From Minisyncoccota bacterium (GTDB lineage Bacteria; Patescibacteriota; Minisyncoccia; Phycocordibacterales; UBA2100), in NCBI GenBank assembly GCA_965267345.1, contig OZ253947.1, positions 330,814-394,813 of the forward strand: 64,000 nucleotides of DNA. The letters are read 5' to 3'. Of the stretch, positions 34,112-55,305 are shown piece by piece (the stretch's first letter is position 1; every line of letters starts with the position of its first letter). Position numbers and translations under genes: made by a program. The notes beneath the pieces are model-generated. The model was given only the letters and a program-made list of their open reading frames with translations, was not told the origin of the DNA and did not search any database.

Positions 34112-34374
34112 TGTGTATCGCGCATGCTAAACGTCGCACAATTTTAAGAGTGCTGAAACAGTGGTAGAGGAGCGAGAGGTTTCATTAGCGACGAAAACGA
34201 CACTGGAAATCGATACGATAGGATAAGAATGGATACTCACTCATGCGCGCGGATCTTTTTTTATGCACCAAATACATGTATAGCGCAGCGAGATCACGGA
34301 ACGAAGCCACATCGCGCCCAGCGGCTGTAGCGCGGTGTAGTGCGCTATGCACATATATATACGTCGCAAAAGAT

Positions 34375-34390
34375 ATATTGTACGACACAT
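34375..34390. repeat. 16-nt exact repeat ATATTGTACGACACAT, copy 1 (copy 2 at 36429-36444)
   Basis: The two copies are identical. Copy 1 lies in the AT-rich non-coding stretch, amid several TGTACGAC-like motifs. Confidence 0.6.
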
Positions 34391-35097
34391 ACATATATTC
34401 TAATACGTCCGCTCTATAATGCAACCTCTCACTTCCCTGTGGTTCTTGTGCGACGTGGTGTGTGGATGTTCTTTTGCGATGCACATGTTGTTTCTTGTAC
34501 GACGCTCGCCCTACCGTGGCTGTGTTGTGTTGAATGCTTCGCAAAAGAATGGATACAAGGTCGTGGTGTAAACCTTTTCGGAAGGTCCCCTTCCCTCTAG
34601 GTATACGACACGTTCTTTGAAAGCTTGGTGGAAACAAAAAGAGCCACACAGTGTGTGACTCTTCAGTTGTGTAATTCACTCAGTGGTACATAGTACCAAC
34701 ATCGGCCGGGATAACACCCGCTACGATTCTCGTGAGGACAACGGTTCTGCTCGAATACCATCAGGTCAGAGACGTACTAGTGTAAAAGAAGACGTACGTA
34801 CTTCCCCGCACTACAATGACCCTATGGTTTACAGATCGTCCCCGTGTTTCACTTTGCCGTTTACGCGAGACCAATAGCTACCGCGGCCACTATAAAAATG
34901 CGCCAGTCCGGTAGGTACTACTATGCACCACTCAATGAACTACTTATTCAATTACGTAGAGCTTGCGCACTCACACAACTGAATGCCTAAAGTATAACAT
35001 ATTCCCTTCCACCCAGCTTTCAGTGATGAAAGCAAACCACAAGACACTCACCTACGACAGTGATACAATTACCACGAATCTTTATGGTGATCATGAT

Positions 35098-35499
35098 ATG
35101 AAATGTAAGCTTGAGTACGCCCTGGTGGCAGAGAATGCAATTATCGACTCCGATTCAAATAAACTCACTGTCGTAGGCCTTTTCAGTAAAATACGAATAC
35201 CGACTGATGGTGGGTCTGTAAGAGTTAATTTTGTTGTTGCAGGAAAAATATCATTGGAAGACATCGCCGGCGAAGATCCTCGGGAACTCACGGTGAAGAT
35301 CGTCAAACCGAACGGAAAGGTTCTCGCTCAAGAAAGTATGAGAGGGCCGCTTGATACCGACGTCACGTTTAGAGCATTTTTCACGCTGATTGAGTTTAAG
35401 GAGGTAGGTTCCTACCATGTGAAGGTTGAGTTTGGTGGCGAAGAGCTCGAGATTAGCAATACTATTGGTTCTTTCAAGGTTGTTGAACGCGAAGCGTGA
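35098..35499 (+). CDS. hypothetical beta-rich protein (island ORFan)
   Basis: 133 aa. A GGTGA ribosome-binding site sits 7 nt upstream of ATG 35098. Low-GC codon usage. A 4-nt gap separates it from the next gene. Confidence 0.45.
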   Translation: MKCKLEYALVAENAIIDSDSNKLTVVGLFSKIRIPTDGGSVRVNFVVAGKISLEDIAGEDPRELTVKIVKPNGKVLAQESMRGPLDTDVTFRAFFTLIEFKEVGSYHVKVEFGGEELEISNTIGSFKVVEREA

Positions 35500-35503
35500 G
35501 CCT

Positions 35504-35884
35504 ATGGAACGAATACAGAATCCGTGGAGCACTTCTCAAGATGACGGAACGGGACATAATCGGCCGAGGATAATTACTTTGGGCAAAAGCCAGTCAGATG
35601 CCATTGACGAACTACGTGACCTTTACAGCAAAACAAGTAAAGACCTAGAGAGAACTCAGGAAGATGTATCGGAGCTGAGAGGACTAAAAACTATAGTAGA
35701 TAAGTACAGCAACCTTCTTATTCTTGGGTTCGCCATTTTGCTTGTAATGGTTGTAAGTATTCTAATGATCACTTTCCAATCCTTTATGGAAACGTATCGC
35801 TACAAAGAAGCGAAGTACAATGAGTACGTAAAGGCTGTTGAGTCACTGGATTCAAAAATAGAAGCCTTACAGACTGAAAAATGA
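35504..35884 (+). CDS. hypothetical protein with coiled-coil segments and a C-terminal TM helix (island ORFan)
   Basis: 126 aa (MERIQNPWSTSQDDG...LLILGFAILLVMVVSILMITF..). Co-directional with, and 4 nt after, 35098-35499. Confidence 0.45.
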   Translation: MERIQNPWSTSQDDGTGHNRPRIITLGKSQSDAIDELRDLYSKTSKDLERTQEDVSELRGLKTIVDKYSNLLILGFAILLVMVVSILMITFQSFMETYRYKEAKYNEYVKAVESLDSKIEALQTEK

Positions 35885-35887
35885 AAA

Positions 35888-35907
35888 ACACCACCCTACT
35901 CTCTTGG
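35888..35907. repeat. about 20-nt direct repeat ACACCACCCTACTCTCTTGG, copy 1 (copy 2 at 36392-36412, ACCACCGCCCTACTCTCTTGC)
   Basis: Two near-identical copies bracket the minus-strand gene 35915-36388 almost exactly. Confidence 0.55.
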
Positions 35908-35914
35908 GGTGTCT

Positions 35915-36388
35915 CTAGTGTGCCTTTCTAAGGAGTGTACTTGGTTTGTACCCAACGACCGTGAACTTCACAGCAACATTCGGCGCACCACCGGATGTGT
36001 AATACGCCAAAGGAGTTCCTACAAAACGAAATAGATCAGCTGATGGAATCTGTTCGTCCTTTAACTTCCCAAAGTCCACATGGACACTTGGAATAACAGG
36101 TAAGTATACGAAAGTATAGTCGTCTATGGGTTGCACTTGATAGTACCATTGTGTAGCTTCTTTACCTTTTACTGGGACCACGTTGACCACAATATCTTTA
36201 TCCCCTTCTGCACGAGTTCCATCTGGATTAAAAAGTGCTTTCTTAACGTTGAGTTCCTCAGCGTGTTTATCAAGGTATTCAAGCAGCGCCAGAACATCTG
36301 CAATAACCATGTCGTGAATAATAGCATCAAACTCCTCCTGAGTTATCTTCGAGGGGTCTATCTCTAAGGTGTGTTGCTCTTCGAGCAC
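35915..36388 (-). CDS. hypothetical protein (island ORFan)
   Basis: 157 aa, acidic N-terminus (MLEEQHTLEIDPSKITQEEFDAIIHDM..). Convergent with the upstream two-gene operon. Flanked by the 20-nt direct repeats. Confidence 0.5.
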   Translation of the reverse strand: MLEEQHTLEIDPSKITQEEFDAIIHDMVIADVLALLEYLDKHAEELNVKKALFNPDGTRAEGDKDIVVNVVPVKGKEATQWYYQVQPIDDYTFVYLPVIPSVHVDFGKLKDEQIPSADLFRFVGTPLAYYTSGGAPNVAVKFTVVGYKPSTLLRKAH

Positions 36389-36391
36389 ATG

Positions 36392-36412
36392 ACCACCGCC
36401 CTACTCTCTTGC
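36392..36412. repeat. direct-repeat copy 2 (ACCACCGCCCTACTCTCTTGC)
   Basis: See 35888-35907. Confidence 0.55.
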
Positions 36413-36428
36413 GACCAGCGCAGAGGTC

Positions 36429-36444
36429 ATATTGTACGACACAT
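36429..36444. repeat. 16-nt exact repeat ATATTGTACGACACAT, copy 2
   Basis: Identical to 34375-34390. Immediately followed by TATAAT (36445-36450). Confidence 0.6.
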
Positions 36445-36510
36445 TATAATACCTGCTTTACCGCTACCCTATAAGTACCGAGGCTCTGCGGGGCGAATTG
36501 ATGATAGTAT

Positions 36511-36759
36511 GTGTTTATGTCCTCCGGCATCAAGGTACAGCGAGGCAGAGAGAGTTGGGACTACATTTACACTACACTCGGCTTTACCCTAACCATAGAG
36601 GGTGTCTTGGTGAGCTATGTTCCCTTTCCCCACTGGCAGGCAAATATTTTTATTGCCGGTTCTCTGTTTATACTCACCATTAAATGCTTCCTAGAAAGCG
36701 AGTGGCTGCACAATGAACTGATCGGGATTAAGGAACGTTATGAAAACGAGTGGCGATAG
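36511..36759 (+). CDS. small hypothetical membrane protein
   Basis: 82 aa with two hydrophobic segments. Weak ribosome-binding site. Confidence 0.3.
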   Translation: MFMSSGIKVQRGRESWDYIYTTLGFTLTIEGVLVSYVPFPHWQANIFIAGSLFILTIKCFLESEWLHNELIGIKERYENEWR

Positions 36760-36861
36760 TCTCCCCTTTTTAGTGCAAGCACGTACGGAACATGTTCTAT
36801 TGACACAATATATATTTTATGTGATAGTTTTATTCCTCGAACTACAGCATGGAGAAATGGT

Positions 36862-36963
36862 ATGGATCGGCAGAATGCGCAGCAATTCGGATTGGGACTA
36901 GGAAAATACGTCCTGGTTCCGATGCTCATCTTCATCATTGCGGCTCTTGCCATTTGGGGCTAG
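36862..36963 (+). CDS. 33-aa single-TM peptide (MDRQNAQQFGLGLGKYVLVPMLIFIIAALAIWG)
   Basis: Upstream TTGACA (36800-36805), 17-nt spacer, TGtGATAGT extended -10, and GGAGA ribosome-binding site. Followed by a hairpin plus T-run terminator. Confidence 0.45.
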   Translation: MDRQNAQQFGLGLGKYVLVPMLIFIIAALAIWG

Positions 36964-36975
36964 GACGTCCGTGGG

Positions 36976-37014
36976 GGCTCGGCTAAACGATTCTGAGGCC
37001 GAGCCCTTTTCGTT
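36976..37014 (+). terminator. intrinsic terminator (GGCTCGGC...GCCGAGCC + CTTTTCGTT)
   Basis: 8-bp GC-rich stem followed by a T-run, directly after the 33-aa ORF. Confidence 0.5.
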
Positions 37015-37136
37015 GCCACCATGCGTCGCTTTCGGGCAGCCTAACCAAAGGGGTGCTCTAAGCGCCCCGCCTCACTCTTTTTACTCTTTTTGTTACGAGT
37101 CACTACCCTACACTATTTCGTATAGGTAAAGTAAAA

Positions 37137-37174
37137 CGCTCGGACCCCGAGGGACAGGGAAAAGGGTCCGAGCG
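37137..37174. repeat. strong hairpin (CGCTCGGACCC...GGGTCCGAGCG, 11-bp stem) in a non-coding hairpin cluster
   Basis: One of four consecutive stem-loops in the non-coding stretch 36964-37345. No flanking T-run on either strand. Confidence 0.4.
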
Positions 37175-37291
37175 CTACCGGCTATGTCTTTGGGGTTCCG
37201 AGACCTTTTCGGGTTTGGGGGGGAAGGTCTCAAAAAAGACACACCGGCACTTCTAGTGTGCCCCTATTAGCAGCATGAGTCAAATGTACAA

Positions 37292-37319
37292 GCGGCCTGT
37301 CGTCGAAACGACAGGCCGC
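37292..37319 (-). terminator. hairpin (GCGGCCTGTCG-TCGAAA-CGACAGGCCGC), probable terminator of minus-strand gene 37346-37591
   Basis: 11-bp stem immediately downstream (minus sense) of the stop at 37346, followed by a U-rich stretch in minus sense. Confidence 0.4.
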
Positions 37320-37345
37320 CCCTTCGTGAACGATCGCCGAGGATG

Positions 37346-37591
37346 TCACCATGACTCGAGAAATAGTGGCTGTAGCCGAGCTTGGTATACTCCCGCGAAA
37401 GCAGTCTCGTAAGAACTCACTACATAGAAACCGTTCGCTCCGTCCACGGACAGGACAGTTTTGCAACACACTGGGAACAGTTGCGTATGTGCCTCATCGT
37501 CAGCATACATGGGCGTCGTAATTTCACTACCCACTGGAAAACCGACTCCGGGGCAACCAACCTGCGTAACGTTCTCATAATCTGAGCTCAT
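37346..37591 (-). CDS. hypothetical 81-aa Cys-containing protein (island ORFan)
   Basis: An AAAGGGGA ribosome-binding site lies 5 nt upstream of ATG (MSSDYENVTQVGCPGVGFPV...). A TATACT -10 lies upstream in minus sense. Confidence 0.45.
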   Translation of the reverse strand: MSSDYENVTQVGCPGVGFPVGSEITTPMYADDEAHTQLFPVCCKTVLSVDGANGFYVVSSYETAFAGVYQARLQPLFLESW

Positions 37592-37852
37592 CGCTTTCCC
37601 CTTTCTTCTTATATGCTGTCTTGTCTGCAGCTGAGTATATGCGCAAATAGCACGAAAAGAAAGACGCACCGCGCAATAGAAGTAAGGCGAGGCGCTCCAA
37701 GCGGCCCCGCCGCGTTGGTATCTCCTGGTACCCCACTGCTTTGACGAGAGAGACGGTCGATAGCTGTTTCCACGTATCCAAATCAAATACCGGTATACAT
37801 GAAAAGAGTGCGTTTAGGGGGTCTCGGAGACAGCGAGAAATGAGAGCACTCG

Positions 37853-38215
37853 TTAGTAGTGACGCCGCCCACGCAAGTGGTGCATCCGTGGATGCAGATA
37901 GATGTAAGCAATGTGTTTGAGTGAATCTGTTATGTGAGCATATGCGTAGCTCCCTACTTCCCTGATCTGAGACGCCGCATAGACACCTATATCGGCGAGT
38001 GCTTCATAGAGCCCGCGAACAAACAAACGGCGTATTGCGTAGCTTCGTCCAAACCCAATGGCGATCTGAATGACGGCCAATATGCCGAAATTGGTGACAT
38101 TGTAAGGCATACCAAACAGTGGTAGCAAAATGAGATTGACCCCAAACATGAGGGCAACCCCGACGGTGACATTAAGTGCGCTTTCAGTAAGCGATTTTCT
38201 ACACGTATCTCGCAT
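37853..38215 (-). CDS. hypothetical membrane protein (2 TM plus basic C-tail)
   Basis: 120 aa. TM segments VTVGVALMFGVNLILLPLFG and NFGILAVIQIAIGFG. No clear ribosome-binding site. Confidence 0.35.
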   Translation of the reverse strand: MRDTCRKSLTESALNVTVGVALMFGVNLILLPLFGMPYNVTNFGILAVIQIAIGFGRSYAIRRLFVRGLYEALADIGVYAASQIREVGSYAYAHITDSLKHIAYIYLHPRMHHLRGRRHY

Positions 38216-38351
38216 ATATGCTTGCGGTGCTTACTAACCCCATAGTTACACTACCACAGACCAATGCAATGGCGTCGTGTTTATAACCCGTTGACGTACA
38301 GTAAAAATCGCTGCACTATGTGAAGGGCTGGTAACGTAGAGGAGGTATCCA

Positions 38352-38477
38352 ATGCGTAGTAAGCCAAGTACCGTGGGAACTGAAGAGGAGCATATGGGCG
38401 TTAAGGATGCTCTCGTGCTGGTCATCCTGGCGAGCATCGCGTTCGTCTTCGTCTCATATATCTTTTTTGGCCCATAA
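38352..38477 (+). CDS. 41-aa single-TM peptide (MRSKPSTVGTEEEHMGVKDALVLVILASIAFVFVSYIFFGP)
   Basis: GGAGG ribosome-binding site 6 nt upstream. Upstream TTGACG-17-CACTAT. Terminator at 38486-38520. Absent from the ORF track (shorter than 60 aa). Confidence 0.5.
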   Translation: MRSKPSTVGTEEEHMGVKDALVLVILASIAFVFVSYIFFGP

Positions 38478-38485
38478 GACCTTTT

Positions 38486-38520
38486 GCGCTGCCTCGCCAT
38501 CACGAGGCAGCGCATTCTCT
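38486..38520 (+). terminator. intrinsic terminator (GCGCTGCCTCG...CGAGGCAGCGC + T-rich)
   Basis: 11-bp stem followed by ATTCTCTTTT. Confidence 0.5.
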
Positions 38521-38688
38521 TTTAACAAACGACCATGGTACCAGCTAGGACTTGAATATGCAGTGCTGAGTACCAAACGGGTCGTGAGAGCCCTCCTTTT
38601 TCAGTGAGAAGTAGGGGCCATGTTATTTTTTGACAATTCACTTTTACGGGTACATCATTACCGTCCAACATGTAAAGGAGGTCAACGA

Positions 38689-38829
38689 ATGACGATACTG
38701 GGATCTCGGCCCAACGAGCTGACTCGGTTTCAGAAGGAGCATCCACGACTTTGGGCGTTCCTGTGCTTCAGTTTGCCGGCACTCGTCTTGGGCATGGGCA
38801 TCGGCCTTGCCCTGCACGGTCATTTCTGA
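38689..38829 (+). CDS. 46-aa single-TM peptide (MTILGSRPNELTRFQKEHPRLWAFLCFSLPALVLGMGIGLALHGHF)
   Basis: AAAGGAGG ribosome-binding site 6 nt upstream. Upstream TTGACA-17-CATCAT. Terminator at 38852-38882. The ORF-track entry 38620-38829 is an upstream extension. Confidence 0.5.
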   Translation: MTILGSRPNELTRFQKEHPRLWAFLCFSLPALVLGMGIGLALHGHF

Positions 38830-38851
38830 CCTATTTTTTCACTCTGTTGGA

Positions 38852-38882
38852 GCCCCGCTGCGTACCAGCGGGGCTTTTGTTT
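38852..38882 (+). terminator. intrinsic terminator (GCCCCGCTG-CGTAC-CAGCGGGGC + TTTTGTTTT)
   Basis: 9-bp GC stem plus T-run. Confidence 0.55.
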
Positions 38883-38954
38883 TATAGGTTTATTGACAGC
38901 TCAGTGAAATGAGCGTATCGTCACAGGTCCAACCAATGAAAGGAGGGTTGCACA

Positions 38955-39158
38955 ATGTCTGACGTTGCAGAACACACCGTCGTCGATGATGGACCGGAAG
39001 AACACGAGCACGACGAGAACTGCGGCCACGACGAGGGGGTATCCGAGGATACTACTCCTGCGGGATTCCCTCGTTGGGCACGCATCCTGATCGTCCTTGC
39101 TATGATCATCCTGATCATGTTCGGCGGCGGCGAGTTGCTCAACACGTTCATGCGCTAA
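38955..39158 (+). CDS. 67-aa single-TM protein with acidic His/Cys-rich N-terminus (…EEHEHDENCGHDEG…FPRWARILIVLAMIILIMFGGG…)
   Basis: AAAGGAGGG ribosome-binding site. Upstream TTGACA-17-TATCGT. Terminator hairpin at 39181-39218. Confidence 0.55.
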   Translation: MSDVAEHTVVDDGPEEHEHDENCGHDEGVSEDTTPAGFPRWARILIVLAMIILIMFGGGELLNTFMR

Positions 39159-39180
39159 CCGCACCGAGTACCTGAGTTGG

Positions 39181-39218
39181 GAGAGCCCTGCTCTTCTTGA
39201 ATGAGGAGCTGGGCTCTC
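39181..39218 (+). terminator. terminator-like hairpin GAGAGCCCTGCTCTTC-TTGAAT-GAGGAGCTGGGCTCTC
   Basis: Imperfect long stem with a TTGAAT loop, directly after the 67-aa ORF. Related to the hairpin at 39458-39494. Confidence 0.45.
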
Positions 39219-39301
39219 TTCATACCTGCGTCATTTGACATTACCCTGTTTCCTATGGCACGGTACACCTCCACCCACTGAGAACGGAAAGGAGGATTCA
39301 T

Positions 39302-39436
39302 CATGGAAAAAGAAGAAGCACCACGCAAGGTTAAAGATCTCGGGGCGACGATGCACAAGTGGGCATTCGTCCTCGTCAGTCTCGCTATCATTATCTGGGT
39401 TGCGTGGGATCAGCTGATCGGCCCCATGGTCAACTA
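39302..39436 (+). CDS. 44-aa single-TM peptide (MEKEEAPRKVKDLGATMHKWAFVLVSLAIIIWVAWDQLIGPMVN)
   Basis: AAAGGAGG ribosome-binding site 7 nt upstream. Upstream TTGACA-like promoter. Shares the H-x-(K/R)-WAF motif with the 46-aa peptide. Terminator at 39458-39494. Confidence 0.55.
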
Positions 39437-39457
39437 ACGAGTACAAGTATCACGGTG

Positions 39458-39494
39458 GAGAGCCTAGCTCTCTTGAATGAGAGCTAGGCTCTTT
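39458..39494 (+). terminator. intrinsic terminator AGAGCCTAGCTCTC-TTGAAT-GAGAGCTAGGCTCT + TTT
   Basis: Perfect 14-bp stem, the same TTGAAT loop as the hairpin at 39181-39218, and a T-run. Confidence 0.6.
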
Positions 39495-39512
39495 TACTGT
39501 CCGCCGCGTTTT

Positions 39513-54967: not shown

Positions 54968-55034
54968 CTACTTGACGCACCCCAAATGTCGGCGTACTCT
55001 CCACTATGTCGTTAACCCCACACAAGGAGGAACA

Positions 55035-55251
55035 CGTGGGTAAGAAGAGCGGGAAAGGTAGCCGGCAACGCGCACGAGCGCAGTTGAAACAGCGCGTGAG
55101 GAGTAACAACATCACTCGCCTCATCGACGGCGACGTTGCGACGCATGCCGTTTCTTCTGGGTGCTACCCTGGGGAGACCGAGCATCGTATGGCAAACGTC
55201 ATCGTCGAGCGCAAAAGACGCCACGCCGGCAAGCCGCATCACGCACAATGA
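55035..55251 (+). CDS. hypothetical small basic protein (72 aa, GTG start)
   Basis: AAGGAGG ribosome-binding site 5 nt upstream of GTG. Followed by the GGGGCGGAAG...CTTCCGCCC+TTTT terminator at 55257-55295. Confidence 0.35.
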
Positions 55252-55305
55252 CGACAGGGGCGGAAGTACTGCACACGCAGAGCTTCCGCCCTTTTCATAT
55301 GGTAG

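Follow-up and report, generated by a model that had tools for sequence, protein, structure and literature searches.

Small single-pass proteins of Escherichia coli such as MgrB, MgtS, AcrZ, KdpF and CydX modulate larger membrane proteins. Proteins of the MgrB/MgtS/AcrZ kind are 30-70 amino acids (aa) long, possess one transmembrane helix and have a narrow distribution, and they are often encoded by stand-alone genes with their own promoter and terminator that annotation often misses or leaves unnamed. Here we describe a locus that resembles them in these respects. It lies in a stretch of 64,000 nucleotides (nt) from a Minisyncoccota bacterium (contig OZ253947.1, positions 330,814 to 394,813), hereafter the window, and comprises five monocistronic genes, four in tandem at 38291-39498 and one at 36800-37011. 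Their open reading frames (ORFs) of 41, 46, 67, 44 and 33 aa are named p41, p46, p67, p44 and p33. We put a probability of roughly 55% on the reading that these are lineage-specific small tail-anchored membrane proteins, p67 with a metal-binding tail and the other four as modulators of larger membrane proteins.

An earlier reading made from the letters of this DNA alone (the sequence-only reading) had regarded the ORFs as independent transcription units for single-helix micro-proteins, and the gene anatomy bears this out. The four array ORFs and the 33-aa ORF were all found where that reading had placed them, on the plus strand, and the peptide strings that it quoted (HPRLWAFL, MHKWAFVL, FPRWARIL and EEHEHDENCGHDEG) are correct to the letter. 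All five genes have a TTGACA or TTGACG -35 box 59-68 nt upstream of the ATG, so that the claim of one promoter per gene stands, but the 17-nt spacer ascribed to each is 18 nt in p44 (Table 1). A standard promoter scan recovers three of the five promoters and misses those of p41 and p44 owing to their weak -10 boxes. A strong ribosome-binding site had likewise been claimed for each gene; a GGAGG core is present 6-8 nt before the ATG in the four array genes, and p33 has GGAG at 7 nt. A strong 3' hairpin terminates each of the five predicted transcripts, whereas the T-run that was said to follow every hairpin is poor in p67, and read-through from p67 into p44 is therefore possible. From its own sigma-70-type promoter, each gene would be transcribed into an mRNA predicted to be 180-300 nt long, with a 24-30-nt leader and an end at its own hairpin, and would be translated from a strong GGAGG site, giving constitutive and independent expression. 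The Shine-Dalgarno region has a mean unpaired probability of 0.16-0.67 in the predicted mRNAs, and the intergenic spacers of the array are nearly filled by one terminator and one promoter. When ORFs of 25-80 aa on both strands of the window were screened for a 5-nt Shine-Dalgarno core together with a hydrophobic 17-mer (Kyte-Doolittle hydropathy, KD, >2.0), four ORFs were obtained and these are exactly the array genes. A TTGAC[AG] box, a Shine-Dalgarno sequence and an ORF of 25 aa or more follow one another at seven sites in the window, four of which make up the array. The anatomy of the cluster is far beyond chance.

Several features of the spacers were also observed. Near-palindromic GGAGAGCCnnGCTCTC units make up the terminators of p67 (39176-39221) and p44 (39457-39494); the window has five matches to them, all at these two terminators, against 0.3 expected, and the units are kept across three genomes (the window and the relatives L001 and L082 described below) better than the adjacent coding sequence. 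An additional spacer of about 100 nt (38525-38629) separates the p41 terminator from the p46 promoter, and in it GTCGTGAGAGCCCTCCTTTT (38581-38600) resembles the 5' arm of the p67 terminator with 80% identity, and this spacer may be the remnant of a lost cassette. A longer ORF of 69 aa, starting at 38620, overlaps the p46 promoter and is not the called p46 product.

Coding potential was evaluated by codon-usage log-odds, with 21 long genes of the window as the training set. For calibration, 45-codon windows of real genes scored +25.7 +/- 8.4 when read in frame, and out-of-frame windows scored -32. On this scale, p41 (+22.9), p67 (+33.6), p44 (+30.2) and p33 (+11.3 over its 32 codons) score like real genes and their own frame is the best of six, which is not the case for p46. 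The antisense ORFs that had been said to mask the array genes exist, but their codon scores of -24, -21.5 and +9 bits are below those of p41, p67 and p44. The genes are not hidden from annotation as had been supposed, since public collections already contain called proteins for all five, each product being a singleton at 90% identity and all coming from one NCBI/ENA contig. The products are unannotated rather than undiscovered.

The array and its anatomy are conserved in related genomes. The best genome match of the FAD-linked oxidase encoded beside the array is that of Patescibacteria group bacterium UBA3458 (L001), with 56% identity, and more distant oxidase homologues carry the names Paceibacterota, Kaiserbacteria or Nomurabacteria. 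Both L001 and a metagenome locus, L002/L082 (56% oxidase identity), have arrays at the equivalent place in the chromosome, with the genes oriented as in the window and convergent with that for the oxidase. The L001 array consists of five small single-helix genes of 46, 38, 59, 80 and 50 aa and that of L002/L082 of two such genes of 43 and 89 aa. Most of these genes have a TTGACA or TTGTCA box, a 17-18-nt spacer and a CACAAT, CACTAT or TACTAT -10 box, and also a ribosome-binding site and a hairpin with T-run. Among 80 metagenome loci with oxidase homologues (L002-L081), the array is kept in L002 only, and the remaining loci have an oxidase identity of at most 47%. The collections searched contain no relative above 80% identity. 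By position and flanking DNA, p44 and the L001 50-aa gene are orthologous: the promoter of p44 is conserved with that of the L001 gene (TTGACG, 18-nt spacer, CACCGT), and the window and L001 share 65% identity over the stretch of terminator, promoter and leader that separates the His-rich gene from p44. Two simpler origins of the array were considered and rejected. The units are not fragments of one multi-helix gene, because every one of them is equipped with a promoter, a ribosome-binding site and a terminator and the layout recurs in L001, and they do not stem from a recent tandem duplication, because no DNA repeats are common to them.

Every peptide contains one hydrophobic 17-mer (KD 2.1-2.8) near its C-terminus, both in the four of 33-46 aa and in p67. 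The helix is preceded by a polar N-terminal tail of 16-41 aa, K/R residues lie on its N-terminal side, and the C-terminal tail that follows is 0-18 aa long and almost free of K/R. Based on helix position and K/R distribution, an N-in, tail-anchored topology is predicted. Scans of all peptides against Pfam, NCBIfam, PHROGs and PADLOC yielded no meaningful match, the lone PHROGs match being a weak one for p41 (E=0.04). No match was obtained by tblastn of p67 against phage records or by blastn of the array against plasmid records, and nothing relevant was found in the literature on small proteins in Patescibacteria, UBA3458 or the motif string of p67.

The sequence-only reading took three of the peptides for diverged paralogues on account of a motif shared just before the helix. 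This is weakly supported because an (R/K)xW element at that place is expected anyway from the positive-inside rule and an interfacial tryptophan, and because sequence similarity is poor; the element is absent from the L001 gene at the p44 position. Smith-Waterman scores were compared for 66 pairs with those of shuffles that keep the tail/helix/tail architecture. p46 resembles neither p67 nor p44, and the score of these two against each other is no more than suggestive (p=0.005, uncorrected for the 66 pairs). A significant score was obtained for p67 against the L082 89-aa protein (z=6.3), and only the His-rich proteins are clearly related; p44 against the same L082 protein gave z=5.0. The p44/L082 and p67/p44 scores hint at a helix-proximal segment in common. 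As far as their sequences can tell, the five peptides are not a uniform paralogue family.

The best handle on function is p67, which has homologues in L001 (P0008, 80 aa) and L002/L082 (P0009, 89 aa). An HxHx3CxH motif (H17, H19, C23 and H25 in p67) is invariant in all three members and the reading frame is kept across the three genomes, while the N-terminal tails vary from about 40 to 70 aa, are otherwise poorly conserved and are strongly acidic, with 4-13 His and a net charge of -8 to -17. C-terminal to the motif, PRW or RRRFW precedes the helix. In the AlphaFold2 model of p67, residues 1-39 are disordered and residues 40-66 form one helix. The sequence-only reading had suggested metal binding from the composition of this tail; the invariance of the motif speaks for it, and p67 is probably metal-binding. 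No relative was revealed by a PDB sequence search or by a word-indexed search of 5.8 billion proteins, in which p67 and the three-member alignment returned only the query sequences, and the HxH(D/T)(E/P)xCxH motif was not found in Pfam, NCBIfam or PDB. A 12-residue stretch of p67, EHEHDENCGHDE, recurs exactly in a phage protein of IMG/VR (L094, 4989-5351). This protein has 120 aa, starts with MSLFEHEHDENCGHDEE, and has neither a transmembrane helix nor a family; over the 12 residues its DNA differs from that of the window by 6 synonymous and 0 non-synonymous changes. A second IMG/VR phage protein of unknown family (L096, 8222-8848 on the minus strand) contains HVHDENCGHD. A degenerate DNA pattern of the motif has five matches in IMG/VR, near a rough chance estimate, and two of these five agree in both residues that the pattern leaves free. 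These phage occurrences suggest, though they do not prove, a portable metal-binding mini-motif. For the cytoplasmic His-rich loops of ZIP transporters, a role as zinc sensors is documented (PMC10256678). The possibility that p67 is a zinc-binding anti-sigma factor (ZAS, zf-HC2) was considered and rejected: p67 has Hx3CxH rather than Hx3Cx2C and no zf-HC2 match, its tail of 39 aa is modelled as disordered in contrast to a domain of about 80 aa, and no annotated neighbour is a sigma factor.

The array sits in an accessory-gene insertion hotspot, a setting beyond the reach of the sequence-only reading, as indicated by the hypervariability of the same site in relatives and by the lower GC content of the segment that holds it. 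The segment of about 5.4 kb has a GC content of 0.46-0.51 compared to 0.53-0.57 in the flanks, which are syntenic across the clade. One flank carries murG, gltX and the M23-peptidase gene, and the other carries genes for PNPOx, the FAD oxidase, a Band-7 protein, an exonuclease, an S41 peptidase and CorA, followed by cysS, dnaB and recR. The same site is empty in L091 (410 bp) and is occupied by a phage-type integrase in L092, a C39-like peptidase and a deaminase in L093, PemK, a ThsB-like TIR protein and a caspase-like peptidase in L088, Fic, an aminoglycoside-resistance gene and two tail-anchored proteins of 98 and 102 aa in L086, and genes of unknown function in L089.

Table 1. Coordinates in the window of the genes, their expression signals and the segment that contains them.
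Feature	Position	Strand	Description
Hypervariable lower-GC accessory segment	34112-39512		between M23-peptidase and PNPOx/FAD-oxidase genes; holds the array
p33 promoter	36800-36828	+	TTGACA, 17-nt spacer, (TG)GATAGT; 10/12 matches, TG extension
p33 coding sequence	36862-36963	+	33 aa, C-terminal transmembrane helix, GGAG 7 nt upstream; P0005
p33 terminator	36974-37011	+	hairpin GGGGCTCGGC...GCCGAGCCC, then TTTTC
p41 promoter	38291-38319	+	TTGACG, 17-nt spacer, CACTAT
p41 coding sequence	38352-38477	+	41 aa, helix core residues 21-37, GGAGG 6 nt upstream; P0002
p41 intrinsic terminator	38485-38524	+	12-bp stem, T-run
p46 promoter	38630-38658	+	TTGACA, 17-nt spacer, CATCAT
p46 coding sequence	38689-38829	+	46 aa, AAAGGAGG 7 nt upstream; weakest coding case
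p46 intrinsic terminator	38849-38887	+	12-bp stem, T-run
p67 promoter	38893-38921	+	TTGACA, 17-nt spacer, TATCGT
p67 coding sequence	38955-39158	+	67 aa; acidic His/Cys tail 1-39, PRWAR, helix 40-66
p67 motif codons H17-x-H19-x3-C23-x-H25	39003-39029	+	invariant in the family
p67 terminator	39180-39219	+	hairpin arms GGAGAGCC..GCTCTC-type, weak U-tract; conserved in L001 and L082
p44 promoter	39235-39264	+	TTGACA, 18-nt spacer, CACGGT
p44 coding sequence	39303-39437	+	44 aa, AAAGGAGG 7 nt upstream; P0004
p44 terminator	39457-39498	+	perfect 14-bp inverted repeat, 6-nt loop, T-run

In the reading that we favour, the five products would reside in the inner membrane, with the charged N-terminal tail in the cytoplasm and the very short C-terminal end outside, following the positive-inside rule. 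Their genes would be accessory genes that evolve fast, are restricted to the lineage and occupy an insertion hotspot of a chromosome of Patescibacteria (candidate phyla radiation, CPR). The tail of p67 would be a membrane-tethered, disordered and acidic segment that binds a divalent transition metal (Zn, Ni, Co or Cu) via H17, H19, C23 and H25. Positioned at the membrane's inner face, it would serve a partner membrane protein as a buffer, chaperone or sensor. The other four products would most likely bind and modulate larger membrane proteins, as known small membrane proteins do. A number of results weigh against this proposal. The codon log-odds score of p46 is neutral (+0.1), which makes it the weakest coding case. 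With the exception of p67, the peptide sequences show no detectable conservation, hence the constraint may be on hydrophobicity alone; even p44 and the orthologous L001 50-aa gene do not score above shuffles (p=0.135), and their coding DNA is 46% identical compared to 42% when shuffled. A full HMMER profile search of 1.84 billion representative proteins recovered just the three p67-family members, and the family was not found in the DNA of L086, L088 and L089, L091-L093 being unscanned for the motif. The three scanned loci include the closest relative found (66% oxidase identity), with a contig that ends about 3.3 kb past the PNPOx gene. Not found in these three relatives, the p67 family is dispensable. 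The putative metal binding of p67 is deduced from composition and motif conservation, no metal transporter or regulator adjoins the array, and CorA and a P-type ATPase are encoded 6-13 kb from it. Finally, the toxin and defence genes that occupy the site in relatives fit a conflict role as well as a housekeeping one.

That last point leads to the view of the genes as conflict-related island cargo, namely small membrane effectors or immunity/exclusion proteins borne as moron-like cassettes in an integration hotspot, whether they act against phage, against competitors or in host interaction. We regard this as unlikely, although it has substantial points in its favour. The segment is hypervariable, being empty in L091 and filled elsewhere with integrase, PemK, TIR, caspase-like, Fic, resistance and C39-like genes, and its GC content is lower than that of the flanks. 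A neighbouring DUF7220 protein matches phage family phrog_4276, the p67 motif also occurs in phage proteins, and the layout of promoter, gene and terminator is the anatomy of morons, which have been described in prophages as just such cassettes. However, PADLOC has no match for the peptides or their neighbours, PHROGs has none for the five peptides apart from the weak p41 match, phage and plasmid records gave no match, and no integrase, phage structural gene or recognisable defence gene was found in the island at 34112-39512 of the window. Vertical inheritance also accounts for the array at this position in no fewer than three diverged genomes. A further and more novel reading is that the p67 family represents a new class of membrane-tethered disordered metal-binding mini-proteins whose HxHDExCxHD-type module is also found in phage proteins, and that the array is a hotspot-borne toolkit for tuning metal handling or excluding phages. 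This is a doubtful proposition; if it were true, ultra-small Patescibacteria would tune metal handling or exclude phages at the membrane.

The sequence-only reading had likened the array to type I toxin genes such as those of Ldr, Hok and TisB, in which case (Ibs being a further model) each gene would be repressed by a cis-encoded antisense RNA. The peptides are indeed small, hydrophobic and single-helix, and their genes lie in tandem with individual promoters and terminators; toxin genes such as that of PemK in L088 are present at the same hotspot in relatives. The likeness nevertheless fails on the antisense gene, the long leader, a family match and repeat units, and we consider it improbable. 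In a sequence scan, a relaxed promoter model that recovers all four sense promoters found no antisense promoter in 38250-39500 and one weak antisense match each in L001 and L082, and no minus-strand promoters or terminators were found within the array. The short leaders leave no room for the long structured 5' untranslated region typical of type I toxin mRNAs, the array units have no DNA repeats in common, and Pfam and NCBIfam at E up to 1 gave no match to a toxin family (Ldr, Hok/Gef, TisB, Ibs, Fst and others). In type I toxins the helix is usually N-terminal and the C-terminus polar; the array peptides, with a C-terminal helix behind a polar tail, are the reverse of this. In addition, consensus -35 boxes and strong ribosome-binding sites imply a high constitutive expression that is hard to square with toxicity, and the products would be expected to be non-toxic. 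It is less probable still that the units are small non-coding RNA genes or decayed remnants with incidental, untranslated ORFs. The expression signals of p44 are conserved at least as well as its coding sequence (65% versus 46% identity), p46 has no codon-usage signal, and the peptide sequences diverge very fast. On the other hand, GGAGG or GGAG stands 6-8 nt from the ATG in all five genes, four of the five score like real genes in the frame that is best of six, and the genes at the equivalent position in L001 and L082 are open frames ending in a hydrophobic helix that have been kept despite indels. Rfam gave no match at the gathering threshold and, at E up to 1, two sub-threshold matches, both to the p46 terminator hairpin. 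We give the least credence to the idea that the ORFs encode precursors of exported peptides, bacteriocins or signalling peptides. It draws on the small size and clustering of the ORFs and on the C39-like peptidase at the same hotspot in L093, and it is contradicted by the lack of a double-glycine or Sec-type leader, by the C-terminal place of the hydrophobic segment, by C-terminal tails of 0-9 aa, so short that no peptide remains to be released, and by the surroundings of the array in the window, where neither an ABC exporter nor a C39 peptidase nor a modification enzyme was found.

The segment and its surroundings contain further elements. A short conserved element at 34353-34424, 3' of the M23-peptidase gene, has the inverted repeat GTCGCA-N12-TGCGAC/TACGAC and is found also in L001 (15031-15101), L082 (5263-5304), L091 (9730-9757) and L093 (3208-3237). 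The L091 copy sits within the gap that is otherwise empty, and related GTCGCA/TGCGAC/TACGAC words occur at 34130, 34450, 34497 and 34603 of the window. The element could be a shared terminator, operator or attachment site. Just 5' of p33, 36511-36759 encodes a protein that has two transmembrane helices in about 75-82 aa, is conserved in L002/L082 (68% and 50% identity in its two halves by tblastx) and matches no family in Pfam, NCBIfam, PHROGs or PADLOC. As it lacks a clear ribosome-binding site, its start codon is uncertain. The ORF-poor stretch 37012-37345 has several GC-rich hairpins, including the apparent terminator of a minus-strand 82-aa ORF at 37346-37594, and showed no Rfam match and no similarity to related loci. 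Stretches of more than 1 kb with neither convincing ORFs nor called genes also occur at the same hotspot in L082 (7800-8960) and L089 (10160-11515). A scan of IMG/VR with the DUF7220 neighbour found no relative. Outside the segment, 54972-55300 holds a further monocistronic small gene of like anatomy, with a TTGACG box, AAGGAGG, a GTG start at 55036 and a terminator hairpin near 55258-55292, and its product is a very basic protein of 71 aa that has no transmembrane helix and no Pfam match.

Patescibacteria have reduced genomes in which many membrane functions lack an explanation, and their small membrane proteins have hardly been studied and are under-annotated. The locus offers clean and testable examples in the form of five autonomous cassettes with near-consensus signals, of which the three-member p67 family with its four-ligand His/Cys motif is the most useful and directly testable handle, and the hotspot between the M23-peptidase and PNPOx/FAD-oxidase genes is a well-defined site for studying accessory-gene turnover in the clade. 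The families are very narrow and the general picture is unchanged by them: small single-pass membrane proteins encoded as autonomous cassettes are a known kind, to which new but tiny families are added here.

Set beside other described systems, the array shares with ldrABCD, ibsA-E/sibA-E, hok/sok and tisB/istR the tandem small hydrophobic ORFs with their own transcription signals, but no antisense or divergent small RNA genes were found and the translation signals are strong and unmasked. A class II bacteriocin has an N-terminal leader and a nearby C39-ABC exporter, neither of which was found for the array. Like prophage morons, the array genes are autonomous cassettes with promoter and terminator in a variable segment; unlike them, they have no prophage around them in the window and occupy the same chromosomal site in three diverged genomes. 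His/Asp/Glu/Cys-rich metal-binding tails are known from the C-terminus of SlyD, the N-terminus of HypB, Hpn and CobW-type proteins. The p67 family resembles His-rich metal-binding tails and loops in its acidic disordered segment, its HD/HE pairs and its conserved Cys flanked by His, and its tail, predicted to face the cytoplasm beside the membrane, is reminiscent of the His-rich loops of ZIP transporters. In contrast to SlyD, HypB and ZIP proteins, the p67-family members are free-standing proteins of 67-89 aa that have their own helix anchor and no chaperone or transporter part. Compared to MgrB, MgtS and AcrZ-like proteins, there is no sequence relationship and no adjacent partner gene, and the array stands apart in that its five genes are clustered in an accessory hotspot and all encode proteins of tail-anchored layout.

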